A stretch of 64,000 bases of DNA from a virus (IMGVR_UViG_3300002092_001548:1-64000), one strand, 5' to 3'; counted from the first letter of the stretch, positions 2,112 to 20,070 are shown. Made by a program: numbers and translations. The notes: generated from the letters alone by a model not told the origin.

Positions 2112-2186
2112 TAAGTAGTTGATTATAAGGGACTTATGCGGCCGGGCCCCGCCGGGCGCCGTAACCTATTGGTATGTAGGCATTTA
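2112..2186 (-). repeat. intergenic element copy R1 (box-core-box, 25+25+25 bp)
   Basis: TAAGTAGTTGATTATAAGGGACTTA + TGCGGCCGGGCCCCGCCGGGCGCCG + TAACCTATTGGTATGTAGGCATTTA. Confidence 0.9.
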
Positions 2187-2207
2187 TGCCGATGCAATTT
2201 TAATGCA

Positions 2208-2243
2208 AAAAAAGTCGCCCCTAGCTTTACGCTAGAGGCGACC
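2208..2243 (-). terminator. intrinsic terminator after rIIB
   Basis: GTCGCC..TAGC/GCTA..GGCGAC hairpin with an A-run on + (U-run on -). Confidence 0.6.
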
Positions 2244-2264
2244 CCCATTTCTCAACCCAATCTT

Positions 2265-3131
2265 TTACTTGGCCTTGGCAACGAACCTCCCTTTGCCGTC
2301 CCTGACCTTGAAGTAGCGGTCGCCATTAGGCTTGCGTCCGTAGGTCTGGTTATCGTAATCCGAATACTCAACCTCGTCGCCCTCGTAGCTGTCCTCGTCA
2401 TAACCATCATAGTAGTTATTAGGAAGGGGAGCATCGAATGTTCCGACAACCTCGTAACGAGAAGTCCTCATCTTCTGGAAGTCGCAGTCGTGAGGAACCG
2501 AAACCACATCAGCAGGATTAACCTTGACGATGATAACCTTGCGATCACTTCCTCCGAAGTTGGTAGCATACTCAAGCGAACCAACATGGAAGCCATAACT
2601 GCATCCGTGATTAGCGTCATCACAGACAGAGTTACGAGGCATGGAGAGAACCTGTCCGATATTGTTATCGAACTTGCCAGAGTAGTGATCCGTCATATCA
2701 GGACGCACACTCTTGTAACCAAGGAAGTGACCATCGGGCGTAATTGGCATATTGCCATGCTCAAGAAAACTATACAATTCGTTGACAGACCTACGACTAG
2801 GATTGTCCATCAAATTGTCGAGGAACTTGAGGAGAGGCGTAGGAGGAATGTTCTCCTTGACGAAACCTAAAATCTTATCGACAATGGTTCCGTGGACTGC
2901 CTCGCCATTATAGAACACATGACCACCCTTAATATCGACATTCCCAACCGACCAATCGGCTACGGATTGTGCGACATCAACGAGAGCCAAAAGCTCCTCG
3001 GCAGTCGAGCCATTAACGATGCCGTCAATGATCTTCTGCCAGTTTTCGTGCGAACGCTGAATCGTGTATGGAGTATTCTCCAAGACGAGCGTGAGTGAAT
3101 TATCAGTTAGGATGTATGGGATGTCATTCAT
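2265..3131 (-). CDS. rIIB: rIIB-like protein
   Basis: PITPDGHFLGYKSVR, FDNNIG..MPRN, GCSYGFHVGSLEYA, KVNPADVVSVP..KMR..YEVV; lies next to rIIA. Start moved to ATG 3131, 6 nt after TTGATT-17-TATAAG. Confidence 0.85.
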   Translation of the reverse strand: MNDIPYILTDNSLTLVLENTPYTIQRSHENWQKIIDGIVNGSTAEELLALVDVAQSVADWSVGNVDIKGGHVFYNGEAVHGTIVDKILGFVKENIPPTPLLKFLDNLMDNPSRRSVNELYSFLEHGNMPITPDGHFLGYKSVRPDMTDHYSGKFDNNIGQVLSMPRNSVCDDANHGCSYGFHVGSLEYATNFGGSDRKVIIVKVNPADVVSVPHDCDFQKMRTSRYEVVGTFDAPLPNNYYDGYDEDSYEGDEVEYSDYDNQTYGRKPNGDRYFKVRDGKGRFVAKAK

Positions 3132-3198
3132 AAGACTCTTATAGTAAATCAAATTGTGAAAATCAACAAGGATTATTTTCAAAAATCTTTCATTGGCA

Positions 3199-3243
3199 TA
3201 AGTCGTTGATAATCAAGCACTTACGGCGCCGGGCCCCGCCGGG
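3199..3243 (-). repeat. intergenic element copy R2
   Basis: TAAGTCGTTGATAATCAAGCACTTA (near-perfect palindrome) + CGGCGCCGGGCCCCGCCGGG. Confidence 0.95.
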
Positions 3244-3269
3244 ATATTAGGTGATATTAAGTATAAAGG

Positions 3270-3305
3270 AAAAGGGTAGGATCGCCACCACAACGACCCT
3301 ACCCT
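3270..3305 (-). terminator. intrinsic terminator after rIIA
   Basis: AGGGTAGG..CCTACCCT hairpin with flanking A-run. Confidence 0.55.
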
Positions 3306-3322
3306 ACTCACCTCACCACAAT

Positions 3323-5539
3323 CTATCGGTTGAGATAGTCGAGGATGTTAGTGATTGCCTTCTCCCATCCCGACCATCTGAACGAACTCCAATCAATGTT
3401 ATTCAGAAGGGGAAAACTCTTCACTAGAGCTTTGCCGTTGTTATGAATATCAGTCGCAATCTTCTTGGAGTTGGTATTAGCCTCAACCAAGGTCATCTGT
3501 GGTGTATTCCTAACCACAAGAGCATCATACATAGCGATTGCCTTCTCTGACTCTGGCGATCCTGCTTTGCCATTGATAGCATCGAACACCGCACGAATAG
3601 TAGAAACCATATCTTTGTTCTTCAGTCCTGTAAGCAAAACCTTTTGAGCTTGCGTGTCCCGAAGGTTACGGAAGGGCAAATCGTTACATAATGCCCCTGC
3701 AATCCTGTTAGCGATTGCCATGTCAAGATTGATGCTCTTTGAAGCAATGAAGGACTCAAACTCTCCCTTGGAAGCCTCAAGGATGTGAACCCATCCCTTG
3801 CCGAGACTCTTCATCTGTGTGCCAGTAACACCGACAATAGATTGAGCCTTCAGCTTTGGAAACTTATCAAGAAAGCCCAGAAGGGTAGAGCTACTAACCC
3901 TAGAATCATTGATGATAGCTTGGTAGTTATTAACTTGGACATAGAATCCAGTTCCACCCTTCATGTCAATCTTTGCTTCCTTCCACGCCGACTTGTCACG
4001 ATAGTTCCTAGCATTAGTAGGATCAAAGGTTAGAACACCAGTCCTAGCAACCTTGCCCGAAGAGACACCGATAGCAGTTGCAGGGATAACGATGGAACTT
4101 GCGAGAACAAAGTCCTCGTCGCAATACCCATTGACACGCTTGATCTCTGCAAGTTGTGAGGCATAAAGAGAGAACTCCTCCTTCTTAACTGCTTTGGTAT
4201 CTTGGACTACACCATTCGTAATCTTGCGAACCTGTGGGGTGAACATATACACCCTGTTCTCCTTATTCGTAGAGGCAAGGTAACGAGCATTCCTCGCACC
4301 AGCGTTATACGATCCAGTATCGTTGAAAACTAGAACCGCACGACCATTAGCTTGAAAGCTATCCACAGAAAGAGAACGAACATTTCCGTTCCAGTTAGTC
4401 TCATACCGCATCAGATAAAATCCGAGCAATCCATCTTTAGACTTTTTGGCAACATCCGCATGATCGTTGATGATAGGAACACCCTTGAAGGTGATCTTAT
4501 CCAGAATCTTGCGAAGATGATAGAACCCATCTACAAAGTTATCCATGCTAAAGAGCAACTTTTTAGCACCGAATACACTCTTGGCAGACGAACCGATGTT
4601 CTTCTCGATATCCGCAACAATCTTATCCACAATCTCAAGTGATAGCTTGCGAATGTTCTGAAGCGTCCTATCAGTATATTGTAAGCCTTCACGACTCGCC
4701 GCAACATCCAAGTCACCGATCTCAAAATTGAGAACGATTGCACTAGACAGAAGGTTATAGATCCTCTTATCCTCATCTCTGCTCAAGTCGAGCTTCATGG
4801 ACGATACCGCCAACGGATAGCCGATGTTGCCCATGATTGCCGTGGCAACCGAAGCATTTTTATAGAATGCCCAACGATCACCCGAAGATATAGGAGGCAA
4901 GAACATATCCGATAGCTCTTGCTCGTTCATACCGATGATCTCTGGCTTGACCTTGAAGAAACGAAGATAGCGGTTGACCGACTTGTTAAACTCTCTGCAA
5001 TCCTCGCCCTTGACAGCGATACAGATTTCTACACCATTAGCCTCATCAGTAGCCTTGGAAGAAAGCGTTGCAATCTGACCGATGCCGCTAGGATCAATGA
5101 AGGCATTGTAGGAAGTAACTTTGCCGTCAACATAAGAATTGATTAAAAAGTTGTCACCATAAGCAAACGCACTCTTTGAGCCGAGGCCGAGTTGACCGAT
5201 GTATGCGTTGCTCTGGCGTTTCGTGCTTTCGCCATAGAAGCAATAAACCTCTTGAATATCCTCTGCGGTAAGACCACTTCCGAAGTCACGAACCTTAAAG
5301 GTTTTCTCAAGAGGAGAGGGGAGAGTTATGCGAATAGGGGTATCAGCGTTCCCTGCCTCGACATTAGCATCGTAGGCATTAGCGGAATACTCACGCACGA
5401 CTGCACCGATCTTATCGGTGTAGAGTTGGTTACGGAGAACATTGAAGATATGAGCAAGGCCAGAATCCTTGATGCCGAAAGCGACAGAGGATTTGATGCC
5501 AGCAGATTCTAGTGAGTTATATTTTTGTTCAGTTATCAT
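3323..5539 (-). CDS. rIIA: rIIA-like protein (N-terminal GHKL ATPase)
   Basis: LYTDKIGAVVREYSANAYDA, DFGSGL, YGESTKRQSN..IGQLGLGSKSAFAY and LDVAASREGL motifs; paired with rIIB. Confidence 0.85.
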   Translation of the reverse strand: MITEQKYNSLESAGIKSSVAFGIKDSGLAHIFNVLRNQLYTDKIGAVVREYSANAYDANVEAGNADTPIRITLPSPLEKTFKVRDFGSGLTAEDIQEVYCFYGESTKRQSNAYIGQLGLGSKSAFAYGDNFLINSYVDGKVTSYNAFIDPSGIGQIATLSSKATDEANGVEICIAVKGEDCREFNKSVNRYLRFFKVKPEIIGMNEQELSDMFLPPISSGDRWAFYKNASVATAIMGNIGYPLAVSSMKLDLSRDEDKRIYNLLSSAIVLNFEIGDLDVAASREGLQYTDRTLQNIRKLSLEIVDKIVADIEKNIGSSAKSVFGAKKLLFSMDNFVDGFYHLRKILDKITFKGVPIINDHADVAKKSKDGLLGFYLMRYETNWNGNVRSLSVDSFQANGRAVLVFNDTGSYNAGARNARYLASTNKENRVYMFTPQVRKITNGVVQDTKAVKKEEFSLYASQLAEIKRVNGYCDEDFVLASSIVIPATAIGVSSGKVARTGVLTFDPTNARNYRDKSAWKEAKIDMKGGTGFYVQVNNYQAIINDSRVSSSTLLGFLDKFPKLKAQSIVGVTGTQMKSLGKGWVHILEASKGEFESFIASKSINLDMAIANRIAGALCNDLPFRNLRDTQAQKVLLTGLKNKDMVSTIRAVFDAINGKAGSPESEKAIAMYDALVVRNTPQMTLVEANTNSKKIATDIHNNGKALVKSFPLLNNIDWSSFRWSGWEKAITNILDYLNR

Positions 5540-5615
5540 GGTGTGTTGGTGTGTAGTGTGAATCCTTATAGTCGTATTTTTTGCCCCATGTGTCAACAGG
5601 TATTTTCACTATTCA

Positions 5616-5660
5616 TAAAGTGTTCAATATCAACTACTTACGGCGCCGGGCCCCGCCGGG
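5616..5660 (-). repeat. intergenic element copy R3
   Basis: TAAAGTGTTCAATATCAACTACTTA + CGGCGCCGGGCCCCGCCGGG. Confidence 0.9.
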
Positions 5661-5678
5661 CATGTTATATAAGTTAAG

Positions 5679-5750
5679 TGGGATCGTCGAGACTCGAACT
5701 CGAAACCAATTCGTTAAAAGCGAACTGCTCTACCATTGAGCTACGATCCC
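5679..5750 (-). tRNA. tRNA-Lys(TTT)
   Basis: GGGATCGTAGCTCAATGGTAGAGC..CTTTTAA..GTTCGAGTC..CGATCCCA cloverleaf. Confidence 0.92.
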
Positions 5751-5753
5751 GAA

Positions 5754-5825
5754 TGCTTTCAGTAGGAATCGAACCTACATTAAGACTTTAGAAGAGTCCT
5801 GTCCTATCCGTTGAACGATGAAAGC
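5754..5825 (-). tRNA. tRNA-Arg(TCT)
   Basis: GCTTTCA/TGAAAGC acceptor stem, anticodon loop CTTCTAA, GGTTCGATTCC T-arm. Confidence 0.9.
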
Positions 5826-5912
5826 TAAATTCCTAGTCCGTCGTATTCTTCATTCATATATTTTTTTTGATAGTGTGGGTTCGAATCTCGATAATAGATG
5901 TAATTGTATTGT

Positions 5913-6545
5913 ATGTCAACGAATAAATTGAAAATCAAACTCTTGAAAGAGAAAGCTAAGAAGCATCAGTGTGAAAATTGTGGTCTAGAATCTTGGCAGG
6001 GAGGCAAAATTCCCATTGAGCTTCATCATATAGATGGTAATCCTAAAAATAATGATATCAATAATCTTCAAATTTTATGTCCAAATTGTCACGCATTAAC
6101 TAATAATTATAGGGGGCGTAACAAGAAAAGAATTCAAAAAGGAAAGTTTATAACTGATGATGAGATTGCTTTGGCTATAACTGAATGTTATAATAGGAGA
6201 CAAGTTTTACTTTTTCTTGGGATGACTGGGTATGGGGCGAGTTACGAAAGAATTAATAAAGTAATACAAGAAAGAGGAGTAGTGTTTAAAGAAGGCGCTT
6301 TAAGGGATAGGTCTACTAAATATATAAAATCCATAAATGAAAAATACGGATCTTTAAAAGAGGTTTTTAAAAAGAAAGTTAATTGGCCAACTAAAGAAGA
6401 ATTAGAGGAGATGCTAAAGAATGAGTCGGCAGTGCAGATTGGAAAAAAACTAGGTGTTTCAGATAATGCAGTTAGAAAAGCCGCTAAGAGATATGGTATA
6501 GATATTCGTTCTATCAGTAAGTGGAGCAAAAAACATGGTAGTTAA
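5913..6545 (+). CDS. HNH endonuclease with C-terminal HTH
   Basis: CENC..ELHHIDGN..NN..NL..LCPNCH; C-terminal SAVQIGKKLGVSDNAVRK HTH. Confidence 0.9.
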   Translation: MSTNKLKIKLLKEKAKKHQCENCGLESWQGGKIPIELHHIDGNPKNNDINNLQILCPNCHALTNNYRGRNKKRIQKGKFITDDEIALAITECYNRRQVLLFLGMTGYGASYERINKVIQERGVVFKEGALRDRSTKYIKSINEKYGSLKEVFKKKVNWPTKEELEEMLKNESAVQIGKKLGVSDNAVRKAAKRYGIDIRSISKWSKKHGS

Positions 6546-6549
6546 AAAG

Positions 6550-6639
6550 TGCTTGAGACGGGATTCGAACCCGTAGTGTGATCTTTAGTCGGTAGCAGAT
6601 TTTAAGTCTGCTGCGTTTCGCCAGTTTCGCCACTCAAGC
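6550..6639 (-). tRNA. tRNA-Leu(TAA)
   Basis: GCTTGAG/CTCAAGC acceptor stem, GCAGA-CTTAAAA-TCTGC anticodon arm, long variable arm, GGTTCGAATCC. Confidence 0.9.
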
Positions 6640-6674
6640 TTATTATTAAATAATAGTAGTTATTGTTTTTAAGT

Positions 6675-6768
6675 TGGTAGTGGGTGTGGGAATCGAACCC
6701 ACGCTCGGCCCTAATCAGGGGCGCACAGATTATAAGTCTGTCGATGCTTCCAATTACATTAACCCACC
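6675..6768 (-). tRNA. tRNA with TAT anticodon (nominal Ile) and long variable arm, CCA encoded
   Basis: GGTGGGT/ACCCACT-A-CCA acceptor, ACAGA-CTTATAA-TCTGT, variable hairpin CCCT-GATT-AGGG, GTGGG-TTCGATT-CCCAC. Confidence 0.85.
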
Positions 6769-6775
6769 AATAGTT

Positions 6776-7066
6776 TTATTTCGGCATAGGATAATTAGTA
6801 TTGATGTAGTCAACAGCTTCCTTATAGTATGGCTCTGCCTTCTGTTGTTTCTTAGTAATGGTTCTCCATCCATATTTAATAGTTCTTGAATAGTTCTTGC
6901 AGAACCAACGCTTCCTATCTATTACAAGATAGTAATCAAATGTGTCTCCGTTCTCGTCAGTAGAGTTATACTGATAGTTTGGATCTTTGGGCGGATAGAT
7001 ATGGACGCTGAAGGTTATTGTTGTATCCTTTTGTGGATCGCCTTTAGTGGAATGAGTGATGTTCAT
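6776..7066 (-). CDS. hypothetical protein
   Basis: 96-aa ORF; TTGACG-17-TACTAT 6 nt upstream of the ATG. Confidence 0.65.
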   Translation of the reverse strand: MNITHSTKGDPQKDTTITFSVHIYPPKDPNYQYNSTDENGDTFDYYLVIDRKRWFCKNYSRTIKYGWRTITKKQQKAEPYYKEAVDYINTNYPMPK

Positions 7067-7097
7067 ATTGTTATAGTAAAAGTTTTTTTATATCTCG

Positions 7098-7337
7098 TCA
7101 AGAAATGATACCAGTCTTTGTTCCATCTTCGTTATGTGCGAAAATAACATTTGTCGCAAACCCACGCATAATGCAACGAGGCTGGCGCTTTTGATCGTGA
7201 CTCTCTACATCCAATCCGATTGTTTTAATTTTATTGACAAGGTGACACGCGCCCTCCCAATGAATTGTGATCACATTCTTGCCAAATGATAGTGAGGCGG
7301 GTTTATTGTAGTGGTAGAAGAAGCGTTTTGGTTTCAT
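7098..7337 (-). CDS. hypothetical phage protein
   Basis: 79-aa ORF (FFYHYNKPAS); TTGACA-17-TATATT promoter at 7375-7347. Confidence 0.7.
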   Translation of the reverse strand: MKPKRFFYHYNKPASLSFGKNVITIHWEGACHLVNKIKTIGLDVESHDQKRQPRCIMRGFATNVIFAHNEDGTKTGIIS

Positions 7338-7404
7338 GGTTCCTTAAATATACCTTTCTTTGCTTATCGTGTCAATACCCTTTTAAATAAAAACTCATTA
7401 TTTA

Positions 7405-7479
7405 TAAGTAGCTCTATATCAATAGCTTACAGCGCCGGGCGCGGCCGGGCGGCGTAACCCGCTCACCACAAACGAGTTA
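7405..7479 (-). repeat. intergenic element copy R4 (box-core-box, 25+25+25 bp)
   Basis: TAAGTAGCTCTATATCAATAGCTTA + CAGCGCCGGGCGCGGCCGGGCGGCG + TAACCCGCTCACCACAAACGAGTTA. Confidence 0.85.
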
Positions 7480-7501
7480 CGCCTATCCCCCATGAAAAGT
7501 A

Positions 7502-8245
7502 CTAACTCTCTAGACAAAAGCTCCAGTAACGGCTATCGGTTTGAGATTGGTTAATATCCCACCAGATGCAACGAGCGACATATGGTGACACATTCCACAT
7601 TTTGCACATACTAACCCAATGAGTCTCCATTGCCTCGTAGTGCTTGGAGTCTTTAGTCTGATCCAGACCATAGACTTGGAAGAGGTGAGTGTCCATGCAG
7701 ACTGCTTCACACTCCGCTGAATAAACCATCTCTAGAGAGAAGGAAACCTTTGCCATGCCGAGTCCGAGAACCTTGTCAACCAAACGATTGCGGAATTCTT
7801 GCCAAGTCTCCTCATCAGTCTTCTTGAAAGATTCGGGATTGCTCCAGAACATCTGGGCGAACTCGCTAATAAAACGAGTGCGGTTCTTGTGCAAGCCTGC
7901 TCCAGAGGAGACGATCCGCTTTTCCAGTTCCTCGTTATTGTTAAGCCACTCCCACCAGTTACGGATGGCAAGATACCCTGTCACATTCGACCTCCAAGAG
8001 GTATGAACAGACATGAAGGCAAAAAGCCAGCGACGAAAGATTTCGCTATCACCTTTAGGGGCGACTGACTGCCAGTAGTCTGAATAGCGACTGATCGTAT
8101 CTGAATCCAGAGAGTTGAAGAACTTTTCTACTTTCGTCGGGTTAAACCCAGAGCGACGAGTAGGGAGGATATTAAGATTATTATCCAAGAATTGGGATTG
8201 TCTGATTGCATTGAGTGAAGTTCCGATGAAGTCTAGTTGTGTCAT
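7502..8245 (-). CDS. HhH-GPD superfamily DNA glycosylase-like protein
   Basis: VLGLGMAKVSF helix-hairpin-helix with Lys, followed by VCMDTH (catalytic Asp position). Confidence 0.65.
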   Translation of the reverse strand: MTQLDFIGTSLNAIRQSQFLDNNLNILPTRRSGFNPTKVEKFFNSLDSDTISRYSDYWQSVAPKGDSEIFRRWLFAFMSVHTSWRSNVTGYLAIRNWWEWLNNNEELEKRIVSSGAGLHKNRTRFISEFAQMFWSNPESFKKTDEETWQEFRNRLVDKVLGLGMAKVSFSLEMVYSAECEAVCMDTHLFQVYGLDQTKDSKHYEAMETHWVSMCKMWNVSPYVARCIWWDINQSQTDSRYWSFCLES

Positions 8246-8291
8246 TGTTATGTGGTGTTAGTGGTGAATCTCTATAATAATTAAAATTGAC

Positions 8292-8867: not shown

Positions 8868-8872
8868 AGGTA

Positions 8873-9016
8873 TTACTTGGTTTGTTCTTTGAGTTGATTG
8901 GATAGACTAGCGATTATGCGTTGTGCAGTAGCAAGCATTTCTATTGCGTCTGCTTTTGCTTCTGGATGATTTTCAATAAGACGTTTGAAGTCATTATTTA
9001 ATTCTGGTGTGTTCAT
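8873..9016 (-). CDS. small hypothetical protein (47 aa)
   Basis: MNTPELNNDFKRLIENHPEAK..., fills the gap between promoter and glycosylase gene. Confidence 0.5.
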   Translation of the reverse strand: MNTPELNNDFKRLIENHPEAKADAIEMLATAQRIIASLSNQLKEQTK

Positions 9017-9356: not shown

Positions 9357-9358
9357 TT

Positions 9359-13358: not shown

Positions 13359-13436
13359 AGGGAAAGACTATGCCGAGAGAGCAAAGAATGGAAGAACTTT
13401 TTTTCTTTTTGCCAAAGTTTTTTTATGAAGAATCTC

Positions 13437-13592
13437 TTGACACCCGCCGAGCCAGTGTTTATGCGGCTTCGCGGCCTATTCATCCGCAGGGTGGGGGGTA
13501 GCGCTAGAGCTAGTATTCATCGGCCTCCGACGATGTATGACAAGCGGCCGGGCGGGGCCGGGCGCCGTAAGTCGTTGATTATCAGTTACTTA
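13437..13592 (+). repeat. long intergenic element copy R9
   Basis: TTGACA, B1 13447, B2 13505, GC core, box A TAAGTCGTTGATTATCAGTTACTTA 13568. Confidence 0.95.
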
Positions 13593-14033
13593 GAACGAAT
13601 GGCGATTTTTATACACATCAGCCGAGGATGTTAGCTTCGGGTTTAACATTAAGTATGCCTCTTCTAGCCTCTGGAGTGGACGATTTAATGTTGGGTATGA
13701 TTCACAAATTGTTCCGTTTATGATAGCAAAAGCGTGTTTATTTGTTGCAACATAGTAGTGACCAGTTGGATGAAGTTTAATGAACTTCTGAATTGTTATA
13801 CTTTTATGACGAGTTTTTCTGTATGTTATTCCATATTTTTTTCTTGCATAGGGCAGGAGCAGTCGTGGGTGATGTCCTCGTCCATGTTTCCTTCCCGATT
13901 CTGTCCCCATCTTGTGGGCTTCCTCATAAGGGATGCCAGCACTAGTCGCCAGAGCTTTGATGGTGCAATCATTGTAGTCCTCAATTCCAGAACTCGCTTT
14001 TCCTCCATCAGTTGTTCGTGTTTTTAATTGCAT
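13590..14033 (-). CDS. hypothetical phage protein (NDC..A motif)
   Basis: NDCTIKALATSAGIPYEEAH..HAFAIING; conserved-looking Cys and His, possible papain-like fold (inference). Confidence 0.65.
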   Translation of the reverse strand: MQLKTRTTDGGKASSGIEDYNDCTIKALATSAGIPYEEAHKMGTESGRKHGRGHHPRLLLPYARKKYGITYRKTRHKSITIQKFIKLHPTGHYYVATNKHAFAIINGTICESYPTLNRPLQRLEEAYLMLNPKLTSSADVYKNRHSF

Positions 14034-14147
14034 GAAAATTTTTGTGTGCTGTCAGGGTGTTGCCTCCTCTAGTGTTTCACGACATCCAGTTAACAAGAGC
14101 GTCCTATGTAGTCGAGACGCTGACGAGGGCTTTTGTCAGGTAATCAA

Positions 14148-14423
14148 TCAGACCAACTCGAACTTGTTGATCCTATCCAGCCGAAACCTGCGGATGTCAT
14201 CTACGGCGGGCACATAACAAGTGATACCTTGACCGCCACGCTCCTTGTAATCGAACTTTCCAAAAGGACGGAAAATCTTATACTCCTTGGGGCTGAATGC
14301 GTTCGACTCTGCCGAGTAGGTGATGGAGTAAGTCCTGCCGCCGATCTTATACATCGTGCGATAGTAAGCGGTAAGGAACTTGCTCTTTAGTTTCTTGATC
14401 TTGTTTTTCATGGTGTTCTTCAT
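14148..14423 (-). CDS. small protein with WYL-like C-terminal motif
   Basis: DIRRFRLDRI resembles the WYL R.FRLDRI motif; TTGACA-17-GAAACT-6-ATG. Confidence 0.55.
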   Translation of the reverse strand: MKNTMKNKIKKLKSKFLTAYYRTMYKIGGRTYSITYSAESNAFSPKEYKIFRPFGKFDYKERGGQGITCYVPAVDDIRRFRLDRINKFELV

Positions 14424-14454
14424 ATTTCTAGTTTCTGTTTTTTTGGGTTTGTTG

Positions 14455-14664
14455 TCAATAATTTATTTGGATTGTTTTTGCGGCTCTGTATGCCGTGATC
14501 ATCTCACCGATATACTTGCGACGACCTTTTGAGAAAGAACTTGTCACGCCCCAATACTTGTTTGTTTTCTTGTAGTCACTTATCTCTTTGCGAATTGCGA
14601 TGATTAGGTAAGAACGGATATTGCAGACATTTTTGAAATCAAGTGAGGGGGTTTTGTTTTTCAT
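14455..14664 (-). CDS. hypothetical protein, paralog of 17149-17358
   Basis: shares NVCNIR, WGVTS, IGEM and AYRAAK. Confidence 0.75.
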   Translation of the reverse strand: MKNKTPSLDFKNVCNIRSYLIIAIRKEISDYKKTNKYWGVTSSFSKGRRKYIGEMITAYRAAKTIQINY

Positions 14665-14707
14665 AGTTTTAATTTATAGGGTTAGAGATGGATTGTCGAG
14701 AATTATT

Positions 14708-14926
14708 TTAGAAGAAAAATTCGTTGGCTAACTCGTTGACCAACTCGCCTTGCTCTTCTGTCAGTTGGGCAAGCTCTTCATCATTAAGAGCCGTTCCATC
14801 GTTCATCCATTGGGCTTCCCCAATCTGTGCGTCAGAGAAGTCTGGATAATCAGACCTGTCTACATTTTCGATATTGATCGAACGAGGATCAACCTCTCGT
14901 CCGTTAAGTGTTACTTGATTTTTCAT
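14708..14926 (-). CDS. small acidic hypothetical protein
   Basis: DYPDFSDA motif; TTGAGT-17-TATACT-6-ATG. Confidence 0.7.
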   Translation of the reverse strand: MKNQVTLNGREVDPRSINIENVDRSDYPDFSDAQIGEAQWMNDGTALNDEELAQLTEEQGELVNELANEFFF

Positions 14927-15012
14927 ACGATCAGTATATGCAACATCTCAAAAAAACTCAACAACAATCGCAAAAAACTTTTGTAGTATTAAAATTATTT
15001 TTACAGAAAAGC

Positions 15013-15169
15013 TTGACAGCCCGCCGAGCTAGTATTGGTGCGGCTCCGAGGCATATTCATCTGTGGGCTATAGGGTGCCGCTACAGCTAGTGTTTATGCG
15101 CCTCCGACGATGTATGACAAGCGGCCGGGCGGGGCCGGACGCTGTAAGTTGTTGATACAGAGCCACTTG
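15013..15169 (+). repeat. long intergenic element copy R10
   Basis: TTGACA, B1 15024, B2 15082, GC core, box A 15145. Confidence 0.92.
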
Positions 15170-15171
15170 CG

Positions 15172-15435
15172 TTAATCAATCATCTTTGTGATAAAAATTG
15201 GAGTATTTTCCCCCATGTAAGCACCAGAGATGTTAAATTCAAAGTATTCCCATGCCTCTTCCCTGTCCATTCCTTGGGACATTAGCTTGGTGATCACCTT
15301 GTCCGTATCGTAAACGATAAGGGATTGTCGGTTGGGTTGTGGGGCAGAGAAACCGATAATGCAGTCGTCAAAGCCGTCGGCCTTGAGTGCCTCGTCTCCA
15401 ACACATTCTAGAAGGTCTTCAAGTATAGTAGTCAT
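15172..15435 (-). CDS. hypothetical phage protein
   Basis: KADGFDDCIIG..GMDREEAWEYFEFNISGAYMGENTPIF, a pattern typical of small phage proteins. Confidence 0.75.
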   Translation of the reverse strand: MTTILEDLLECVGDEALKADGFDDCIIGFSAPQPNRQSLIVYDTDKVITKLMSQGMDREEAWEYFEFNISGAYMGENTPIFITKMID

Positions 15436-15662
15436 TATTTTTTATTATTAAAATTATCAGCGTAGTCTTGGAAGGAAATCTGACCAGTAAGGAAAGATCC
15501 TATGATGAGGGCATCATTATAGTTGTAGCCCATACCCATAGCATCTTCAATGAAGGCTTGAAGTGTAAACAGGGTAGCGTCCTCCTGTGCCCTTGTGAGA
15601 TTGCCATTAAGTAGGCTTTCGATTATGCTACTAGGGGAGATGTTGCGAAAGGTGATAGTCAT
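15435..15662 (-). CDS. hypothetical protein
   Basis: 75 aa, TAATG-coupled to both neighbours. Confidence 0.65.
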   Translation of the reverse strand: MTITFRNISPSSIIESLLNGNLTRAQEDATLFTLQAFIEDAMGMGYNYNDALIIGSFLTGQISFQDYADNFNNKK

Positions 15663-15874
15663 TAGTCTTTTTTAGTTGTGGTTGTTTTGAAAAGGAAGGA
15701 ACAGAGAACACTTAATCCCCACCCCTGAAGGTAGGTGATCGTTCCCAGTCCAAAGATTGTAGGGGCAAGCCAATTCCAGAGCAACATAATGAAGAGACCA
15801 TTAAGTAGGGCAAAAAGTGCGATAACGGCAATGACTCCGAGAGTGTAAGCAACTGGTTTAAGGATTTTGTTCAT
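15662..15874 (-). CDS. small membrane protein
   Basis: two hydrophobic segments, LWNWLAP..ITYLQGWGL; TTGGCA-17-TACTAT-6-ATG. Confidence 0.7.
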   Translation of the reverse strand: MNKILKPVAYTLGVIAVIALFALLNGLFIMLLWNWLAPTIFGLGTITYLQGWGLSVLCSFLFKTTTTKKD

Positions 15875-15895
15875 AGTGGTATAGTATAAGATTTT

Positions 15896-16162
15896 TTATT
15901 TGATGCCAAGCTTTTTCAGCTTTGCCCCGAAAGCTTCGTCTGACTTTTGCTGATAGATTTCGGGATCTTGAAAAGGAGCCTGTGCAAAGGAAACATCATT
16001 CCAATGGAAGGAAGGAACGCCCCAAGAGTTAGCTTCGTAGGATGCGGCACTATGGACAACGGCGAGGTGTTGCCAGTATAGAGAGGTGAGACAAGAGTCG
16101 ATAACGCAGAACGCTAGGGCGACGATTGAGATGATGCCGAGCTGTTTTAGTTTTGTTTTCAT
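15896..16162 (-). CDS. N-terminally anchored hypothetical protein
   Basis: 88 aa, hydrophobic N-terminus, TTGACA promoter with AC-rich leader. Confidence 0.6.
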   Translation of the reverse strand: MKTKLKQLGIISIVALAFCVIDSCLTSLYWQHLAVVHSAASYEANSWGVPSFHWNDVSFAQAPFQDPEIYQQKSDEAFGAKLKKLGIK

Positions 16163-16205
16163 GGTTTTTTGGTGTTGTTGGTTATGGGTTAATTAAAAAG
16201 AATTT

Positions 16206-16346
16206 TTAGTGAGTTGTCAACCACTCATTCGGGTTTCCATGCTCTTTGACGAGAGCTTCGATCTCATCCATCCAAGCCTCGTATTCAGAGGCGTAAGCGG
16301 CAAGGTCTTCAGCGGCGATTTCTTTAGGGTTAAGTAGTAGTTCCAT
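16206..16346 (-). CDS. small acidic hypothetical protein
   Basis: MELLLNPKEI..; TTGCAC-16-TATTCT-6-ATG. Confidence 0.6.
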   Translation of the reverse strand: MELLLNPKEIAAEDLAAYASEYEAWMDEIEALVKEHGNPNEWLTTH

Positions 16347-16422
16347 GATTAGAGAATACCATAAAAAGAGTTTTGTGCAATAATTATTTATAAAAAAGTT
16401 TCGACCGGATGGGAGAAATCGC

Positions 16423-16578
16423 TTGACAGCCACAGAGCCAGTACCAGTGCGGCTCGGAGGCATATTCGTCTGTGGGGTATGGGGCGGCGCTAGAGGCTGA
16501 TAGAATGGGCTTCTGCGAGGGGCGACCGGACGGCCGGGCGGGGCCGGGCGCTGTAAGTCGTTGATATTGAGGGCTTTA
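16423..16578 (+). repeat. long intergenic element copy R11 (diverged)
   Basis: TTGACA, B1 16433, B2 16491, GC core, box A 16554. Confidence 0.9.
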
Positions 16579-16804
16579 TGACAGGAGTTCTCTTTTAATG
16601 CCAGCGATATAAAATCTCCAAGATTTTGGGTTGCGAATTAAACAATTTAAGTGAAGTGAGATCCTAGTCATGCTCATGATGTTTAGTGGTGCGTTTGTAT
16701 ATCTTTTTTGAGGGAATTAACTTCTGAAGTGGGGCAAAGGGCTGTCTGGCCTTAATGTCTTTTAATTGAATTAAAAATCGTTTTGTTTTCATGTGATTTT
16801 GATT

Positions 16805-16880
16805 TGGCGGAAGTGACGGGACTCGAACCCGTAGCCTTTAGCTTGACAAGCTATTGCTCTGACCATTGAGCTACACTTCC
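16805..16880 (-). tRNA. tRNA-Asp(GTC), CCA encoded
   Basis: GGAAGTG/CACTTCC-G-CCA, anticodon loop TTGTCAA, GGTTCGAGTCC. Confidence 0.92.
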
Positions 16881-16886
16881 AAAATT

Positions 16887-17117
16887 TTATTCGATAGGGC
16901 AGTTCTCCGAATACCAGTCATTGTAGGACAAGTGCCATTCCTCCTCGAAAGCCGTCATCTGCGCTCCCGTGTAGGAAAAGGCTCGCTCCAGTTGACGCTT
17001 GATGATTCCGATATCCCAGTCCTCAAAGCTCCTCTGGATGAGGGTTGAAAGCTCGCGGTCATTGACTGCGCGAAGCATGAGTTCCGAAGTGGTGTTGTGT
17101 GTGATGTCAATTTTCAT
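16887..17117 (-). CDS. hypothetical protein
   Basis: 76 aa; GTGACA-17-TAGACT-6-ATG. Confidence 0.65.
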   Translation of the reverse strand: MKIDITHNTTSELMLRAVNDRELSTLIQRSFEDWDIGIIKRQLERAFSYTGAQMTAFEEEWHLSYNDWYSENCPIE

Positions 17118-17148
17118 GATTTGAGTCTAGGGGTTATTGGTTGAGTTG

Positions 17149-17358
17149 TCACCATTGAATTTCAATGTTTTTTGCGGCTCGGTAGGCGTTCACCATCTCA
17201 CCGATCCGTTTACGGCGAGCCTTGGCGAAGTCGCTAGTCACGCCCCAATCTTTGCGGCATTGCTTGTATTCCTTTATCTCGCCACGAATCGTAAGAGAAA
17301 GGAAGGTACGAATGTTGCAAACATTGTCGAAGTTGAGGGGTTGTGTTTTGTTTTTCAT
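17149..17358 (-). CDS. hypothetical protein, paralog of 14455-14664
   Basis: MKNKTQPLNFDNVCNIR..; TATTCT-6-ATG. Confidence 0.75.
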   Translation of the reverse strand: MKNKTQPLNFDNVCNIRTFLSLTIRGEIKEYKQCRKDWGVTSDFAKARRKRIGEMVNAYRAAKNIEIQW

Positions 17359-17435
17359 GGTTAAAGAATAGCACTGACCCACAAAAAAAACGAGAAAAAT
17401 CGTTCGGCTAGTGAAAATTTATTTTATGGAAAAGC

Positions 17436-17591
17436 TTGACACCCGCCGAGCCAGTGTTTATGCGGCTCTACGGCATATTCATCCGCAGGGTGGGGGGTAG
17501 CGCTAGAGCTAGTATTCATCGGCCTCCGACGATGTATGACAAGCGGCCGGGCGGGGCCGGGCGCTGTAAGTCCTTGACGGTAAGCAACTTA
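17436..17591 (+). repeat. long intergenic element copy R12 (near-identical to R9)
   Basis: TTGACA, B1 17446, B2 17504, GC core, box A 17567. Confidence 0.95.
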
Positions 17592-17759
17592 CGCTAATGT
17601 TTGTAACCCCATGTCACAGAGGCAGTTATCATAGCGGCAGCGAACCAGTAACTAACATCGCCCCACTTGCCAGAAATTGCCCATCTTGTGGCGTTTATAA
17701 CATACAAGAACATTATAACATAGTTAAAGAAGCGAGGATCAGTTATTATTTTAATCATA

Positions 17760-18158
17760 TTATTCATCATGGTGAGCTACTAAAATTCCATTGATTCCAC
17801 TTTCAAAAGCTTCAACAATAACATTAGGATTATCGTCGATGTGTAGTAAACTACCCAATTCTTGCAAGTGTGGAAGTTTAGATTTTCCTCCTGTTGAGAT
17901 TATACCCTTAATCGGCAAGTTGTGATCTTTCACGAATTGTTCAACCTCTCCAGTATCTTTTAATAGTCTAAAGGTAACAATCCATATATCATAACCTTTT
18001 TTACTATGATCGAATACAATTTCAAAGATTTCTTCAATCGGGGTTAATGTTCCCCCCTCAAGGTGTCCATGTCCCCAAGGTGATTTTGGATCCCAGACAT
18101 TATGGGTTTTAGCTAATGTCTCATCAAAGTCTACTGTTATTACTTTCTTTTTTGTCAT
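17760..18158 (-). CDS. HAD-superfamily hydrolase-like protein
   Basis: motif I ITVDFDETL, motif II IVTFR, Lys (GKSK) and motif IV HIDDN. Confidence 0.75.
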   Translation of the reverse strand: MTKKKVITVDFDETLAKTHNVWDPKSPWGHGHLEGGTLTPIEEIFEIVFDHSKKGYDIWIVTFRLLKDTGEVEQFVKDHNLPIKGIISTGGKSKLPHLQELGSLLHIDDNPNVIVEAFESGINGILVAHHDE

Positions 18159-18165
18159 ATTTTAT

Positions 18166-18381
18166 TTATTGGTTAAGTGGATCAGCAAAGAGGTTACGAA
18201 GGGCAATCTCTGCCGCTTTCTTGTTGGCGACTTCAATCTTTGCGTTGAATCTCGCATCTTTCCTCTCTTGAGGAATCCAAAAGCCTTTTGTGTAAAGGTC
18301 TCTCTTAATTGCCGAGAGTCTTTCGAGTTGGATTCTACGAAGCTCGATGATCTTTTGGTTTCTGTTGTTCTTATCTTTCAT
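18166..18381 (-). CDS. small basic hypothetical protein
   Basis: TTGTAA-17-TAGTAT-6-ATG. Confidence 0.65.
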   Translation of the reverse strand: MKDKNNRNQKIIELRRIQLERLSAIKRDLYTKGFWIPQERKDARFNAKIEVANKKAAEIALRNLFADPLNQ

Positions 18382-18458
18382 GTATTCATACTAGTCCCAA
18401 ACCGCAAAAATTACAACATCTTTTTTTGTTTTTGATAAACTTTTTTTAGCGAAAAGGC

Positions 18459-18604
18459 TTGACAGGCTCATGGTCACAGAATGCACGACCTTCATCCGCA
18501 GGCCATAGGGTGCCCCTAGAGCTAGTGTTTATGCGGGTCTACGAGGTATGGCCTCCCAACCGGGCGGGGCCGGGCGCCGTAAGTCGTTGATTATCAGGGC
18601 TTTA
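18459..18604 (+). repeat. long intergenic element copy R13 (B1 absent)
   Basis: TTGACA, B2 TAGAGCTAGTGTTTATGCGGGTCTA 18517, GC core, box A 18580. Confidence 0.92.
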
Positions 18605-18607
18605 TGA

Positions 18608-18670
18608 CTATCGCCGTATTGCTACGGCGACAACTAACATCATAAGAATTAGGACGATTATAGTACTCAT
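18608..18670 (-). CDS. 20-aa hydrophobic micropeptide
   Basis: MSTIIVLILMMLVVAVAIRR downstream of TTGACA-17-TACTAT (18720-18692). Confidence 0.4.
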   Translation of the reverse strand: MSTIIVLILMMLVVAVAIRR

Positions 18671-18741
18671 TCGGTGTGATTAGATCCTGCTATAGTATTC
18701 CCCTACGAGGGGAATGTCAAGACATTTTGTAATCATACGGC

Positions 18742-18918
18742 CTAGTGATGGCGGCGGTTGCTTGTGCCAGCATGACCGCCTGATGTGCCCTTGTGTCCAC
18801 GGCCATAGATGCCAGAGTGTGACGATGAGCTTCCCTTGTGTGACCATGCGGCCTGTGCTGGCGTGGCAACGATAAGGGCGAGGAGTGCGATGAGGGCGAT
18901 GTGTAGTGTGTGCTTCAT
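18742..18918 (-). CDS. secreted Gly/Ser/His-rich peptide
   Basis: signal peptide ending AQA, then a G/S/H-rich tail; TTGACA-17-CACAAT-6-ATG. Confidence 0.6.
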   Translation of the reverse strand: MKHTLHIALIALLALIVATPAQAAWSHKGSSSSHSGIYGRGHKGTSGGHAGTSNRRHH

Positions 18919-18955
18919 GTTGTTATTGTGGGTTATGTTGGTGAGTGTGTCAAGC

Positions 18956-19102
18956 CTATCGTGAGACGAGTTCGTGCTTGAGGTCAAGGACTAGATCGGA
19001 TGCCATGTAGGACAACCGCATGAGCAGATCATTGCCTTGACGCTCTGAACGGATAGAGAGCTTGATGAGGTAGTTGGAGAGAGTGATGAGATGTTTGTTC
19101 AT
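18956..19102 (-). CDS. small hypothetical protein (48 aa)
   Basis: TTGACG-17-CACAAT-6-ATG. Confidence 0.55.
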   Translation of the reverse strand: MNKHLITLSNYLIKLSIRSERQGNDLLMRLSYMASDLVLDLKHELVSR

Positions 19103-19114
19103 GTGTCTATTGTG

Positions 19115-19204
19115 CTAGTGATTGCAGATGCCGTCAACAAGATAAAGCAGGGCGACGAACTCGGCAACGATACCAATGGAGAGGAGTGAGATGATGAGTT
19201 TCAT
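19115..19204 (-). CDS. 29-aa membrane peptide
   Basis: MKLIISLLSIGIVAEFVALLYLVDGICNH, TAATG-coupled to the upstream gene. Confidence 0.5.
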   Translation of the reverse strand: MKLIISLLSIGIVAEFVALLYLVDGICNH

Positions 19205-19317
19205 TACTTGGAGCAAACTTCAAGAGCGAGGACGATGAGACCGACCGATGACAAGGCGAGGACGCCAAGCGAGAGGAAGGTGACGAGGATGAGGGCTGTG
19301 TCAATATGGTGTTTCAT
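19204..19317 (-). CDS. 37-aa membrane peptide
   Basis: MKHHIDTALILVTFLSLGVLALSSVGLIVLALEVCSK; TTTACA-17-CATACT-7-ATG. Confidence 0.5.
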   Translation of the reverse strand: MKHHIDTALILVTFLSLGVLALSSVGLIVLALEVCSK

Positions 19318-19361
19318 TTGATATAGTATGGTGTGTTTGTGGTGATATGTAAAGACTTTTT

Positions 19362-19766
19362 TTAGTCGTGTTTGTTATTCTTGTTGCACCAGTTATGCAT
19401 TGACTGCGAGGTTGCTTTGTAGTACGCATCAAACTCTTCGACGCTTACAGATGATTCTTTGAGAGCTTTGAGCGTTCCGACATTGCAAAGGTCGCCTTTC
19501 CAGTCAAGCATTGGAGTTGATCCGCTTGATGCTCCACGACCGAGGAGATAACCACGCTCGCCCCCTTCGTACTTGTAGATACCACCATACTTCGTATCCT
19601 CATAGATCTTGCCAACGACAAGCGTGTCGAGGATAGCACGAGCTTCTGGCTCGGTCATCTTATACTTAAACTCAAACGATAGCTTGGGCATTCCTGCGGC
19701 TCTCCATTCTTTCATGGTCATCTTGCTGATCTCTTCTTCTGTGTATTGTTTCGTTTCAGTGTTCAT
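19362..19766 (-). CDS. hypothetical protein
   Basis: 134 aa; TTTACA-17-TACATT-6-ATG. Confidence 0.7.
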   Translation of the reverse strand: MNTETKQYTEEEISKMTMKEWRAAGMPKLSFEFKYKMTEPEARAILDTLVVGKIYEDTKYGGIYKYEGGERGYLLGRGASSGSTPMLDWKGDLCNVGTLKALKESSVSVEEFDAYYKATSQSMHNWCNKNNKHD

Positions 19767-19808
19767 AGTTTTAATGTATAGGGGTTAAGGTTTATTGTAA
19801 AGGATTTT

Positions 19809-19949
19809 TTATTTTTTTATTCCTGCGTATTGTTCAAGAGCCTTGATCGTCTGTGCGTTGACCTCGGTGTATTGTTCCAGTGTCTTGGCGAAGTCGCGGA
19901 TCTGTGCCTTCAGAGGGTTCTCTCTGACTTTGTTTTTCTTAATCTTCAT
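19809..19949 (-). CDS. small hypothetical protein (46 aa)
   Basis: TTGCAA-17-TACTAT-6-ATG. Confidence 0.55.
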   Translation of the reverse strand: MKIKKNKVRENPLKAQIRDFAKTLEQYTEVNAQTIKALEQYAGIKK

Positions 19950-20026
19950 GTGTACATAGTACCCCAGATCTCCGCAGATTGCAACAATTATTTTTGTGTG
20001 TGATAAACTTTTTTTATTGAAAAAGC

Positions 20027-20070
20027 TTGACGGCTGTAGAGCTAGTGTTTATGCGGCTTGGCGGGCGGTG
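20027..20070 (+). repeat. truncated intergenic element copy R14
   Basis: TTGACG, then B box TAGAGCTAGTGTTTATGCGGCTTGG 10 bp later, then degenerate GC sequence; no box A. Confidence 0.75.

Follow-up and report, generated by a model that had tools for sequence, protein, structure and literature searches.

The 64,000-nucleotide stretch IMGVR_UViG_3300002092_001548:1-64000, hereafter the window, makes up the first 64 kb of a 138,208-bp virus record that is linear and 89% complete, and the DNA runs holding it carry the label of freshwater or lake metagenomes. From 1.7 to 21.7 kb the minus strand carries all recognisable genes, a call made because of rIIB and rIIA, five tRNAs, a DUF932 gene and GP88, and the structural genes follow on the plus strand from 24.5 kb onward. 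Between the early genes recurs an intergenic element, hereafter the module, whose conserved part is a sharply bounded 45 bp in which a 20-bp G/C core is fused to a 25-bp imperfect dyad. The dyad matches the consensus for integration host factor (IHF), a DNA-bending protein of which it is a predicted site, and the modules stand where one transcription unit ends and the next begins. Recognisable genes and copies of the module are given below in map order.

2112-2186, no strand assigned: dual module, dyad 2112-2136, core about 2137-2161, dyad 2162-2186
2265-3182, minus strand: rIIB (PHROGs, E 3.9e-72)
3199-3243, minus strand: module between rIIA and rIIB, core 3224-3243, dyad 3199-3223, with gene direction
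3323-5596, minus strand: rIIA (PHROGs, E 1.5e-104)
5616-5660, minus strand: module between tRNA-Lys and rIIA, with gene direction
7405-7479, no strand assigned: dual module, dyad 7405-7429, core 7430-7454, dyad 7455-7479
9102-9146, minus strand: module between two small-gene groups, with gene direction
10439-10483, minus strand: module past the f17 stop codon
10850-10924, plus strand: class A unit, promoter TTGACA-17-TATACT 10850-10878, 1 nt, core 10880-10899, dyad 10900-10924
10997-11785, minus strand: DUF932 gene (44.1 bits, cut-off 23)
11868-12025, plus strand: class B long unit, core 11981-12000, dyad 12001-12025 (repeat families D1, D2, D7)
12144-12827, minus strand: GP88 (family profile match)
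13436-13592, plus strand: class B long unit, core 13548-13567, dyad 13568-13592
15013-15169, plus strand: class B long unit, core 15125-15144, dyad 15145-15169
16422-16578, plus strand: class B long unit with diverged boxes, core 16534-16553, dyad 16554-16578
17435-17591, plus strand: class B long unit, core 17547-17566, dyad 17567-17591
18459-18604, plus strand: class B unit with the first sub-repeat replaced, core 18560-18579, dyad 18580-18604
20027-20064, plus strand: truncated copy, TTGACG and first box, without core or dyad (D7)
within 1.7-21.7 kb, minus strand: five tRNAs

The order core-to-dyad reads on the minus strand in the copies at 3224, 5641, 9127 and 10464 and on the plus strand in those from 10880 to 18560, and the copies at 2142 and 7435 are dual, with a dyad on either side of the core. 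The earlier note on this DNA, made from the sequence alone, had described a fourteen-copy palindrome with a G/C core, and this description holds: the core pattern CCGGGCGGGGCCGGGCGCCG is matched 13 times in the window at up to three mismatches (mean of 100 dinucleotide shuffles, 0.00), each time with an abutting dyad, and the fourteenth copy, at 20027, is truncated as the note said, having an upstream TTGACG and a box. The sequence that it gave for the best copy, 3199-3223 (repeat family D9), was also right. Its fourteen coordinates point to real sites but mix three landmarks, namely the start of the dyad from 2112 to 10439, the start of the core at 10880 and the start of the long-form promoter from 11868 to 20027; the flip in orientation, the antisense promoters and the IHF consensus match all escaped it. 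It had seen no copies further to the right, and all matches do fall in the first 19 kb of the 138-kb record, where the 12 core matches at up to two mismatches lie within 3,224-18,579 and a reversed control pattern gives none. Since all 19 matches in 138 kb to a loose regular expression for the 25-bp dyad directly flank a core, core and dyad always occur together, and neither is found in the other ~120 kb.

An exact pattern scan of a viral collection returned 17 loci on 9 contigs, and five of those viral records hold 11, 11, 13, 14 and 15 cores each, with none for the reversed control. The repeat is thus a real, clade-wide element confined to one clade of uncultured freshwater phages. The note had asked whether the motif might be an already described host repeat. 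Two patterns searched against one genome per species from 185,579 bacterial and archaeal species gave no match, and the module is therefore not a REP-type (repetitive extragenic palindrome) or CRISPR repeat of any represented genome, so that mimicry of such a host repeat is ruled out for those genomes. The phage-specific, intergenic and protein-site-like character proposed for the element is in this respect supported. The analyses below use 79 modules, taken from the window and five relatives (six genomes in all).

The core reads CCSGGCG-GGG-CCSGGCG-CYG, all G/C, and most of its columns hold 1.5-2.0 bits over the 79 copies, against ~70% identity for orthologous genes. Its two S positions take the combinations CC (28 copies), GC (25), GG (24), CG (1) and AC (1), without the covariation that a core hairpin would call for; since the two are more often alike, the core is most naturally taken as a pair of 7-bp direct repeats with a spacing of one helical turn. 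Conservation in the dyad is found at the outer and inner positions, and those in the middle fail to complement each other. Among 900 dyad pairs from 75 unique copies, 548 are Watson-Crick, 101 G-U, 73 A-C and 178 other, and pairs 6-20 and 7-19 form at chance level, so that the dyad is not mainly a hairpin. A purine precedes the core, at position -1, in 70 of the 79 copies. Orthologous modules are 0.795 identical (69 pairs), compared with 0.729 for paralogous modules from one genome (482 pairs) and 0.730 for those from different genomes (2,523 pairs). Concerted evolution among the copies was accordingly not seen, and the excess of orthologous over paralogous identity implies that selection at each site, rather than ongoing exchange, maintains the family.

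These features bear on the possibility that the module is a classical PeSL (promoter early stem-loop) element of the T4 type, in which core and dyad would be RNA or DNA stem-loops that end or attenuate read-through and would owe their conservation to descent. We regard this as unlikely. The core can indeed fold into a 5-6 bp G/C stem with a GGG loop on either strand, the modules do lie at gene 3' ends, a hairpin works in both directions and would fit the flip in orientation, and PeSL stem-loops in one published account are often poly-G followed by poly-C and effective as terminators (PMC2839356). Nevertheless, no U-tract follows the module, separate canonical terminators precede three modules on the gene strand, the variable core positions show 52 of 79 mismatched combinations and no covariation, and the pairs in the middle of the dyad form only as often as by chance. 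What is conserved is sequence, and it follows the consensus of a protein site. In class A units, moreover, the spacing of 1-2 nt between promoter and core suggests that transcription starts inside the core, which would leave the 5' arm of the stem untranscribed.

The protein consensus is that of IHF, WATCAANNNNTTR (PMC8942017). The dyad consists of two inverted matches to WATCAANNNNTTR with a common centre, the arm next to the core being the better one. Read on the bottom strand from the centre to the core, this proximal arm has W, then A in 61 of the 79 copies, T in 71, C in 64, A in 79 and a purine in 79, followed by the four least conserved columns and then by T in 79, T in 79 and a purine in 79. 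The distal arm, read on the top strand outward from the centre, has A in 39, T in 58, C in 52, A in 78 and a purine in 78, then four variable columns and T in 76, T in 79 and a purine in 77. Exact matches to the purine variant of the consensus, WATCARNNNNTTR, occur in two registers only, on the bottom strand at offset 20 in 40 of 79 copies and on the top strand at offset 32 in 19; at least one arm has such a match in 50 modules (among them 3199-3243, where the IHF regular expression matches in both arms) and both arms have one in 9. The strict form is matched in 34 proximal and 6 distal arms, and 400 permutations of the consensus columns reached a maximum of 5 of 79. The IHF consensus is not enriched over the genome as a whole (33 matches in 138 kb against 25.9 +/- 5.1 in random sequence), and 13 of these 33 matches fall inside modules. 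Since the unpaired middle of the dyad corresponds to the N4 of the consensus, the palindrome is imperfect at the same places in every copy. The dyad therefore agrees with the IHF consensus even in its degenerate positions and is a predicted IHF site; what would be new here is that a 'palindrome' is better described, on its column pattern, as two inverted IHF-consensus matches that share a centre than as mainly a hairpin.

As to position, at least one gene 3' end is abutted by 72 of the 79 modules, and 41 lie between a divergent start and a converging end, 21 between a co-directional end and start, 10 between two gene ends and 6 between two gene starts, with one at the edge of a locus. In the converging class the dyad usually ends between -13 and +7 nt from the stop codon, which in 10 cases makes up the final three dyad bases, as in the dyad 13568-13592 and the stop codon of the converging gene 13590-14033. 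The modules thus mark transcription-unit borders, although location at a gene 3' end is a weak criterion in a co-directional array. Regular expressions for the upstream context sorted 45 of the 79 copies (8 in class A, 2 in A2, 20 in B, 11 in C and 4 in D), and the 34 left as 'other' were read by eye, so that the classes are partly assigned by eye.

Promoter-like sites are in excess in the window (60, compared with 34.2 +/- 5.9 in shuffles), in keeping with the earlier note, which had given the intervals their own promoters; that they often have a terminator as well was overstated, terminator-like sites numbering 20 against 17.6 +/- 4.9 in shuffles and long terminators on the gene strand just three (2246-2210, 3305-3273 and 10980-10951). 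The best sigma-70 matches of the window, at 10850 (+), 10431 (-) and 7375 (-), all adjoin modules. The surroundings differ between two blocks. In the rII block an upstream gene, a terminator or a tRNA comes first and the module follows, pointing in the direction of the genes; TAACAT or TAATAT abuts the core, and the minus-strand promoter of the next gene begins 7-40 nt past the dyad. The rIIB terminator, for example, has downstream of it the dual module 2112-2186, with a core match on each strand; module 3199-3243 has, on the minus strand, the rIIA terminator (3305-3273) before it and the rIIB promoter region after it; module 5616-5660 has TATAACATG immediately upstream of its core on the minus strand; and module 7405-7479 is followed on the minus strand by a promoter at 7375-7347. 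The dyad of module 10439-10483 likewise ends, on that strand, 7 nt ahead of a promoter TTGACA-17-TATACT (10431-10403).

In the small-gene block, by contrast with the rII block, a strong plus-strand promoter lies upstream of the module, at a distance of 1-2 nt in class A or ~115 nt in class B. These promoters would fire antisense into the stop codon or end of the neighbouring gene, back to back with the promoter of the gene on the other side, and they point antisense because the modules there separate a divergent start from a converging end. In class A, relatives included, just 1-2 nt separate the core from the end of a sigma-70 promoter of the TTGACA-17-TATACT type, which has an A/T-rich tract upstream; the unit at 10850-10924 is antisense to the DUF932 gene, and its promoter has 11 of 12 consensus matches. 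In the six long copies of the window (11868-18604) TTGACA comes first, then a pair of ~59-nt sub-repeats with a box in common, then a small dyad TTGTnnnACAA, and last the core with its dyad. The unit 11868-12025, which is antisense to its flanking genes, carries a box AGTGTTTATGCG in each sub-repeat. TTGTnnnACAA, which may point either way, is found in many copies within the spacer or immediately before the core, and the box CTAGAGCYAGTGTTTATGCGG and TTGTnnnACAA in the long units 11868-18604 are conserved as sequence and not as RNA helices. GTGTAA- or TTGTAA-like words stand 8-10 nt upstream of the core in the long units. No clean ladder of 10-11 bp, as helical phasing would give, was seen by eye in the distance from dyad to next start codon.

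The genes between the modules have an unusual start layout. Of 35 minus-strand genes, 16 have a TAnnnT hexamer that ends 5-9 nt ahead of the ATG (8% at random positions), together with a -35 match in 9 (1.3%), and 1 has a Shine-Dalgarno-like word (9%). From these start regions the early genes appear to be laid out for leaderless mRNAs, mostly as single-gene units with promoters of their own. Elsewhere in the genome GTGTAA-N7-9-ATG stands ahead of 12 open reading frames (ORFs) of at least 50 amino acids, and GTGTAT ahead of one more; with 13 such ORFs it is a plausible phage-specific promoter word for leaderless genes. Examples in the present record (G000) are at 23856, 36776 and 38070 on the plus strand and at 26814 on the minus strand.

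The module could also be a conserved 5' leader of ~45 nt, transcribed in sense in the rII block and as part of antisense RNAs in the small-gene block, which would act on RNA polymerase or as RNA, for instance by loading a processivity factor, by an antisense-timed shut-off of early genes or as a decoy RNA. We consider this possible, though we doubt it. It would account for the -10-type element just before the core in several classes (TATACT-like at 1-2 nt, with TTGACA at 17 nt), for the TAACAT or TAATAT abutting the rII-block cores and the GTGTAA- and TTGTAA-like words of the long units, for the purine at position -1, and for the fact that the right-half units all share the direction of the late genes; GTGTAA-N7-9-ATG as a plausible phage promoter word and the excess of G-U (101) over A-C (73) in the oriented strand point the same way. 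However, a DNA site is the better fit for dual modules and for those copies that have a terminator before them and lack a good promoter, the IHF-type column pattern has no obvious meaning in RNA, and a search for conserved RNA structure was negative. In 24 long units RNAalifold detected six invariant pairs, all within the core, no compensatory change and no consensus structure, and Rfam returned nothing from 1 to 22 kb beyond tRNAs and one sub-threshold twister match; a structured RNA was therefore set aside.

Another possibility is that the modules form an operator array, in which a regulator of the phage, and not host IHF, would bind the dyad, the core or both, and would block or pause polymerase at +1 to +45. 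The module does overlap the place where strong promoters probably start transcription, many copies have a further small dyad (TTGTnnnACAA) near the core, and two Ogg-like helix-hairpin-helix proteins are encoded between the modules 7435 and 9127; stoperators offer a precedent, being numerous across a phage genome and bound by a repressor that also terminates elongation (PMC9283540). Yet the dyad agrees, column for column, with the consensus for a known host protein, a scan of 16 early proteins with Pfam and PHROGs showed neither a helix-turn-helix protein nor any other regulator that could be recognised (most of the small proteins being without a family), and integrase and recombinase searches gave no sign of lysogeny genes, which makes an operator array quite unlikely. 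The Ogg-type glycosylase-like genes form an adjacent pair, 7502-8245 and 8292-8867, both on the minus strand; the latter scores 34.2 bits against PF22175 (cut-off 27) and the former 25.6 bits, below the cut-off.

The earlier note had seen the modules as dividing the region into cassettes that are shuffled at the elements, and gene-family maps of the six genomes, built from crude ORF calls, bear on this. The block formed by rIIA, rIIB, the tRNAs and f10 is inverted in relatives G002, G004 and G005 relative to the window, G001 and G003. A module stands at both borders of the inverted block, both dual in the window and in G005, and module 7405-7479 is one of these borders. In G001 the blocks (rIIB-rIIA), (...f10) and (f11-f12) come in reverse order without being inverted. 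Every block border bears a module in the window and in G001, and one border of G005 (f12/f16) is without one. In pairwise, non-independent comparisons of genomes the downstream neighbour was kept at 34 of 106 junctions with a module in both genomes, at 69 of 138 with a module in neither, and at 1 of 29 with a module in one only. Ends of homology blocks of at least 250 nt (n=70) were located in modules +/- 20 nt in 20 cases (9.9% of the region), in other intergenic or gene-edge DNA in 29 (25.7%) and inside genes in 21 (64%), which makes them ~1.8x denser at modules than in other intergenic DNA.

More recent events can be followed in near-identical lake populations, for which a comparison of four runs gave at least 15 joints (15 listed and 11 further). 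An end lies within 60 nt of a module in 6 of the 15 listed. Two events stand out most clearly, the loss or replacement of gene 13590-14033 and a 780-nt deletion. The former was seen in two runs from two studies, with the left edge 10 nt from the dyad; the 5' part of unit 18459-18604 was replaced in lake relatives (joint 18447->18512), and the truncated 20027 copy has an extra 29-nt box unit in run X4. The 780-nt deletion lies between two identical 18-nt promoter stretches (8273->9054), and 8274-9053 is absent from one lake population. The joint 16476->18530, between two long units, was not counted as a deletion, its short side being just 29 letters, and the many contig ends at modules were attributed to repeats that break assembly.

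How the claim of shuffling fares thus depends on its part. The borders of the inverted and permuted blocks do bear modules, as expected if breakpoints fall at the elements, but half of the module-free junctions are broken as well. As to whether indel breakpoints are unrelated to the elements, which the note had raised against itself, the ends of homology are enriched at modules yet also fall at ordinary promoters and gene edges. That modules partition the region into cassettes is not borne out, gain and loss being frequent inside module-bounded intervals too and the neighbour having changed in 69 of 138 cases without a module and in 72 of 106 with one; nor is an ongoing shuffling at the elements, in view of the higher identity of orthologous than of paralogous copies. 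The modules are neither the sole nor the main breakpoints of gene turnover. They are long-lived, individually selected sites that also provide homology for occasional large rearrangements, for a 45-bp sequence recurring 11-15 times per genome in both orientations makes joints for homologous recombination.

A dedicated site-specific recombination system, integron- or invertase-like, would also place modules close behind ORF stops, with 10 dyads ending in the stop codon, and would explain the module-flanked inverted block, dual at its borders in the window and G005, and the permuted blocks with modules at their borders. It is nonetheless highly improbable. No tyrosine integrase (PF00589), serine recombinase or Y1 transposase (PF01797) was found in the 138-kb record, in agreement with the note, which had seen no recombinase in the window, and neither of the first two was found in a complete 154-kb relative. 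Orthologous copies are stable across the six genomes without concerted evolution, the cassettes carry their own promoters, and many indels lie away from modules.

Several known systems share features with the module, and in the literature searched we found no description of a phage element closer than those compared here. PeSLs of T4-type phages, to which the earlier note had likened the element, comprise a stem-loop that is a terminator and a promoter that serves the downstream gene (Arbiol et al. 2010, PMC2839356; Comeau et al. 2014, PMC4122927). The likeness holds in that both are repeated intergenic composites among small, non-essential early genes, that a strong sigma-70-type promoter and an A/T-rich upstream tract stand beside a G/C-rich dyad, that one gene is one transcription unit, and that differences between relatives consist of indels, replacements and rearrangements bordered by repeats, no dedicated recombinase being known. 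Unlike in PeSLs, the constant part here is a 45-bp module conserved in sequence and matching the IHF consensus, without stem covariation or a U-tract; it stands after, before or between promoters; the adjoining strong promoter is antisense to the genes in 41 of 79 copies; the mRNAs appear to be leaderless, without ribosome-binding sites; and a T4-type affiliation of the phage cannot be demonstrated, isolated phages being far removed from it (rIIA at most ~32% identical, large terminase at most ~26%, and no match to 21 kb by megablast or to one unit by blastn). The analogy with integrons that the note also drew fails on their defining features: attC arrays do share an imperfect dyad right after the stop codon of a small gene and the arraying of accessory genes, but here PF00589 and with it an integron integrase is absent from the 138-kb record and the complete relative, the genes come with promoters of their own, it is the sequence and not the structure that is conserved, and both orientations occur.

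Among chromosomal repeats the nearest are the RIB (reiterative ihf BIME), RIP or BIME-1 (bacterial interspersed mosaic element) repeats of Escherichia coli. In BIME-1 the linker often bears an IHF site, and RIBs are found at transcription-unit 3' ends (Boccard and Prentki 1993, cited in PMC3333891); REPs have been described as binding sites for IHF, Pol I and gyrase and as terminators, mRNA stabilisers and topological insulators (PMC3333891). Cleavage by gyrase is over-represented in BIME-2 and downstream of units with high transcription (PMC6379681). Like the module, RIB/BIME-1 is a short extragenic repeat that joins a G/C-rich palindromic unit to an IHF consensus site, it is found at the 3' ends of transcription units (as are the modules, 72 of 79 abutting a gene 3' end), and roles in termination, mRNA stability, and topological insulation and organisation have been proposed for it. 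A RIB is, however, an IHF linker between inverted REPs, whereas the module has one G/C core with an IHF-type dyad on one or both sides; the module is phage-borne rather than chromosomal, with no match in the 185,579 species genomes; no REP-associated Y1 transposase is present in the 138-kb record; and for the module IHF binding is predicted from the consensus match. In phage Mu the early promoter is positively controlled by IHF (PMC3820752), and a host IHF site, here a predicted one, lies beside a phage early promoter in a region of divergent promoters in both. Mu has one such site, against 11-15 per genome in the present phages, where every site is fused to a G/C core and many lie downstream of a promoter aimed at them. 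A stoperator is a short, asymmetric site to which a temperate phage's immunity repressor, encoded by the phage itself, binds. In cluster A mycobacteriophages stoperators resemble the modules in being many copies of one oriented site in short intergenic spaces, placed in relation to transcription and proposed to act in cis on RNA polymerase (PMC9283540). The module differs in being 45 bp long, partly dyad-symmetric and a match to a host protein's consensus, and neither a repressor among the early proteins scanned nor a lysogeny gene was found. The kind of system is thus a known one, of which the IHF-type dyad, the antisense layout and the leaderless setting make a distinct variant.

We favour, with about even confidence, a reading in which the module is an architectural boundary: an IHF-type bend site joined to a G/C clamp, with features of both PeSLs and RIB/BIME-1, recombination being a by-product. 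A sharp bend would be put into the DNA next to the stiff G/C clamp by host IHF, or by some protein with its specificity, at the point where one transcription unit stops and the next promoter begins. The module would thereby insulate and tune a dense array of mostly leaderless single-gene units, a role comparable to that of RIB/BIME-1 at E. coli operon 3' ends and of the stem-loop half in T4-type PeSLs. Over evolutionary time ordinary homologous recombination between copies would have inverted and permuted blocks, rearrangement being a secondary consequence that would need no dedicated recombinase. The anatomy of the module, its consensus match, positions and conservation, and its presence at rearrangement borders are observations. 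A DNA site fits the columns of a protein consensus, the dual and symmetric copies, the copies behind true terminators and the lack of core covariation, and is preferred for these reasons. IHF binding and bending, insulation and use of the antisense promoters are what this boundary reading would add to them.

Several points weigh against it. Just 19 of 79 modules are exact in the distal arm, and in 29 neither arm is an exact match; IHF leaves the most conserved part, the G/C core, unexplained, and it may be that the core is the site of an undescribed protein of the phage or the host. That the host possesses IHF is an assumption, and the phage itself supplies no evident substitute, since a HU/IHF-family gene (PF00216) was found in none of five records, the complete G002 included. 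The hosts with IHF that have been studied best do not typically show a near-absence of Shine-Dalgarno words or a leaderless layout. The boundary reading also leaves the purpose of the antisense promoters, whose use is predicted from sequence, unaccounted for. An RNA role stays a rival because of the excess of G-U over A-C pairs, the -10-type element before the core and the better fold of the plus strand, which in the long units is 2-20 kcal/mol better than that of the minus strand (single-sequence folds without a shuffle control). The junction and homology-end tests used crude ORF calls and non-independent genome pairs, and module-free junctions were broken in 69 of 138 cases, against 72 of 106 for module-bearing ones; together with indels off the modules, such as the lake joints 15437->15674, 16792->16897 and 5743->6675, this implies that the role in recombination is modest.

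A bolder version of the architectural boundary, which we hold to be doubtful, is that of a BIME-like topological-insulator array of the phage's own making, in which a host-IHF bend and the G/C clamp would close each cassette while a consensus host promoter fires in from the far side. Converging transcription would then pile positive supercoils on the module, which might be an entry point for gyrase, and the antisense promoters would be a programmed, genome-wide shut-off or dosage control of leaderless host-takeover genes.

Some features of the surroundings deserve mention beside the modules. Base composition differs between intervals, as the earlier note had remarked for DUF932: G+C is 0.573 at 11-12 kb and 0.41-0.46 in the surroundings, so that the DUF932 gene sits in a 57% G+C kilobase with flanks of 41-46%, yet its family is present in 6 of 6 related genomes examined. 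A Twister-P1 ribozyme-like match at 9871-9932 (-) scores 45.3 bits against a gathering score of 67.2 (E 1.3e-8 in a 1-kb search), with most core nucleotides aligned, and this ~60-nt piece was retained in one lake run in which both flanks were replaced (joints 9835->9872 and 9932->9972). Nearby, ~9599-9699 (-) stands out in three runs by a very high summed contig depth (for example 485.9 at 9651 in X4) and by numerous loose ends, and terminates in a tRNA-like T-arm, acceptor and CCA, with no ARAGORN or Rfam call; it may be a widely shared small RNA or tRNA-like element. Further along, two ~1.1-kb stretches, 44744-45833 and 47794-48874, ~3,045 nt apart and 70-76% identical (repeat families D4, D6, D11), are probably paralogous structural genes. 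In the complete relative G002 (154 kb; ends L024 / L025) the 'direct terminal repeat' is just 127 bp, with an ~84-nt repetition inside, and looks like a circular-assembly overlap rather than physical ends; the map is therefore circular or permuted, and the idea of a transcription-driven entry of the DNA from a fixed end was dropped.

If IHF does bind the 11-15 sites per genome, a lytic-type phage would have wired its whole host-takeover region to an architectural protein of its host, and the module would be a phage counterpart of the chromosomal RIB/BIME-1 repeats, the function of which is still debated. With a strong antisense host promoter for nearly every leaderless cassette, the region would offer a compact natural system in which to study convergent transcription, supercoil insulation and the shut-off of early genes. 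For phage evolution, the modules represent a joint, defined by its sequence, where the inversion and permutation of blocks has gone on with no recombinase. They may also give a clue to the host, which, if the boundary reading is true, should possess IHF.

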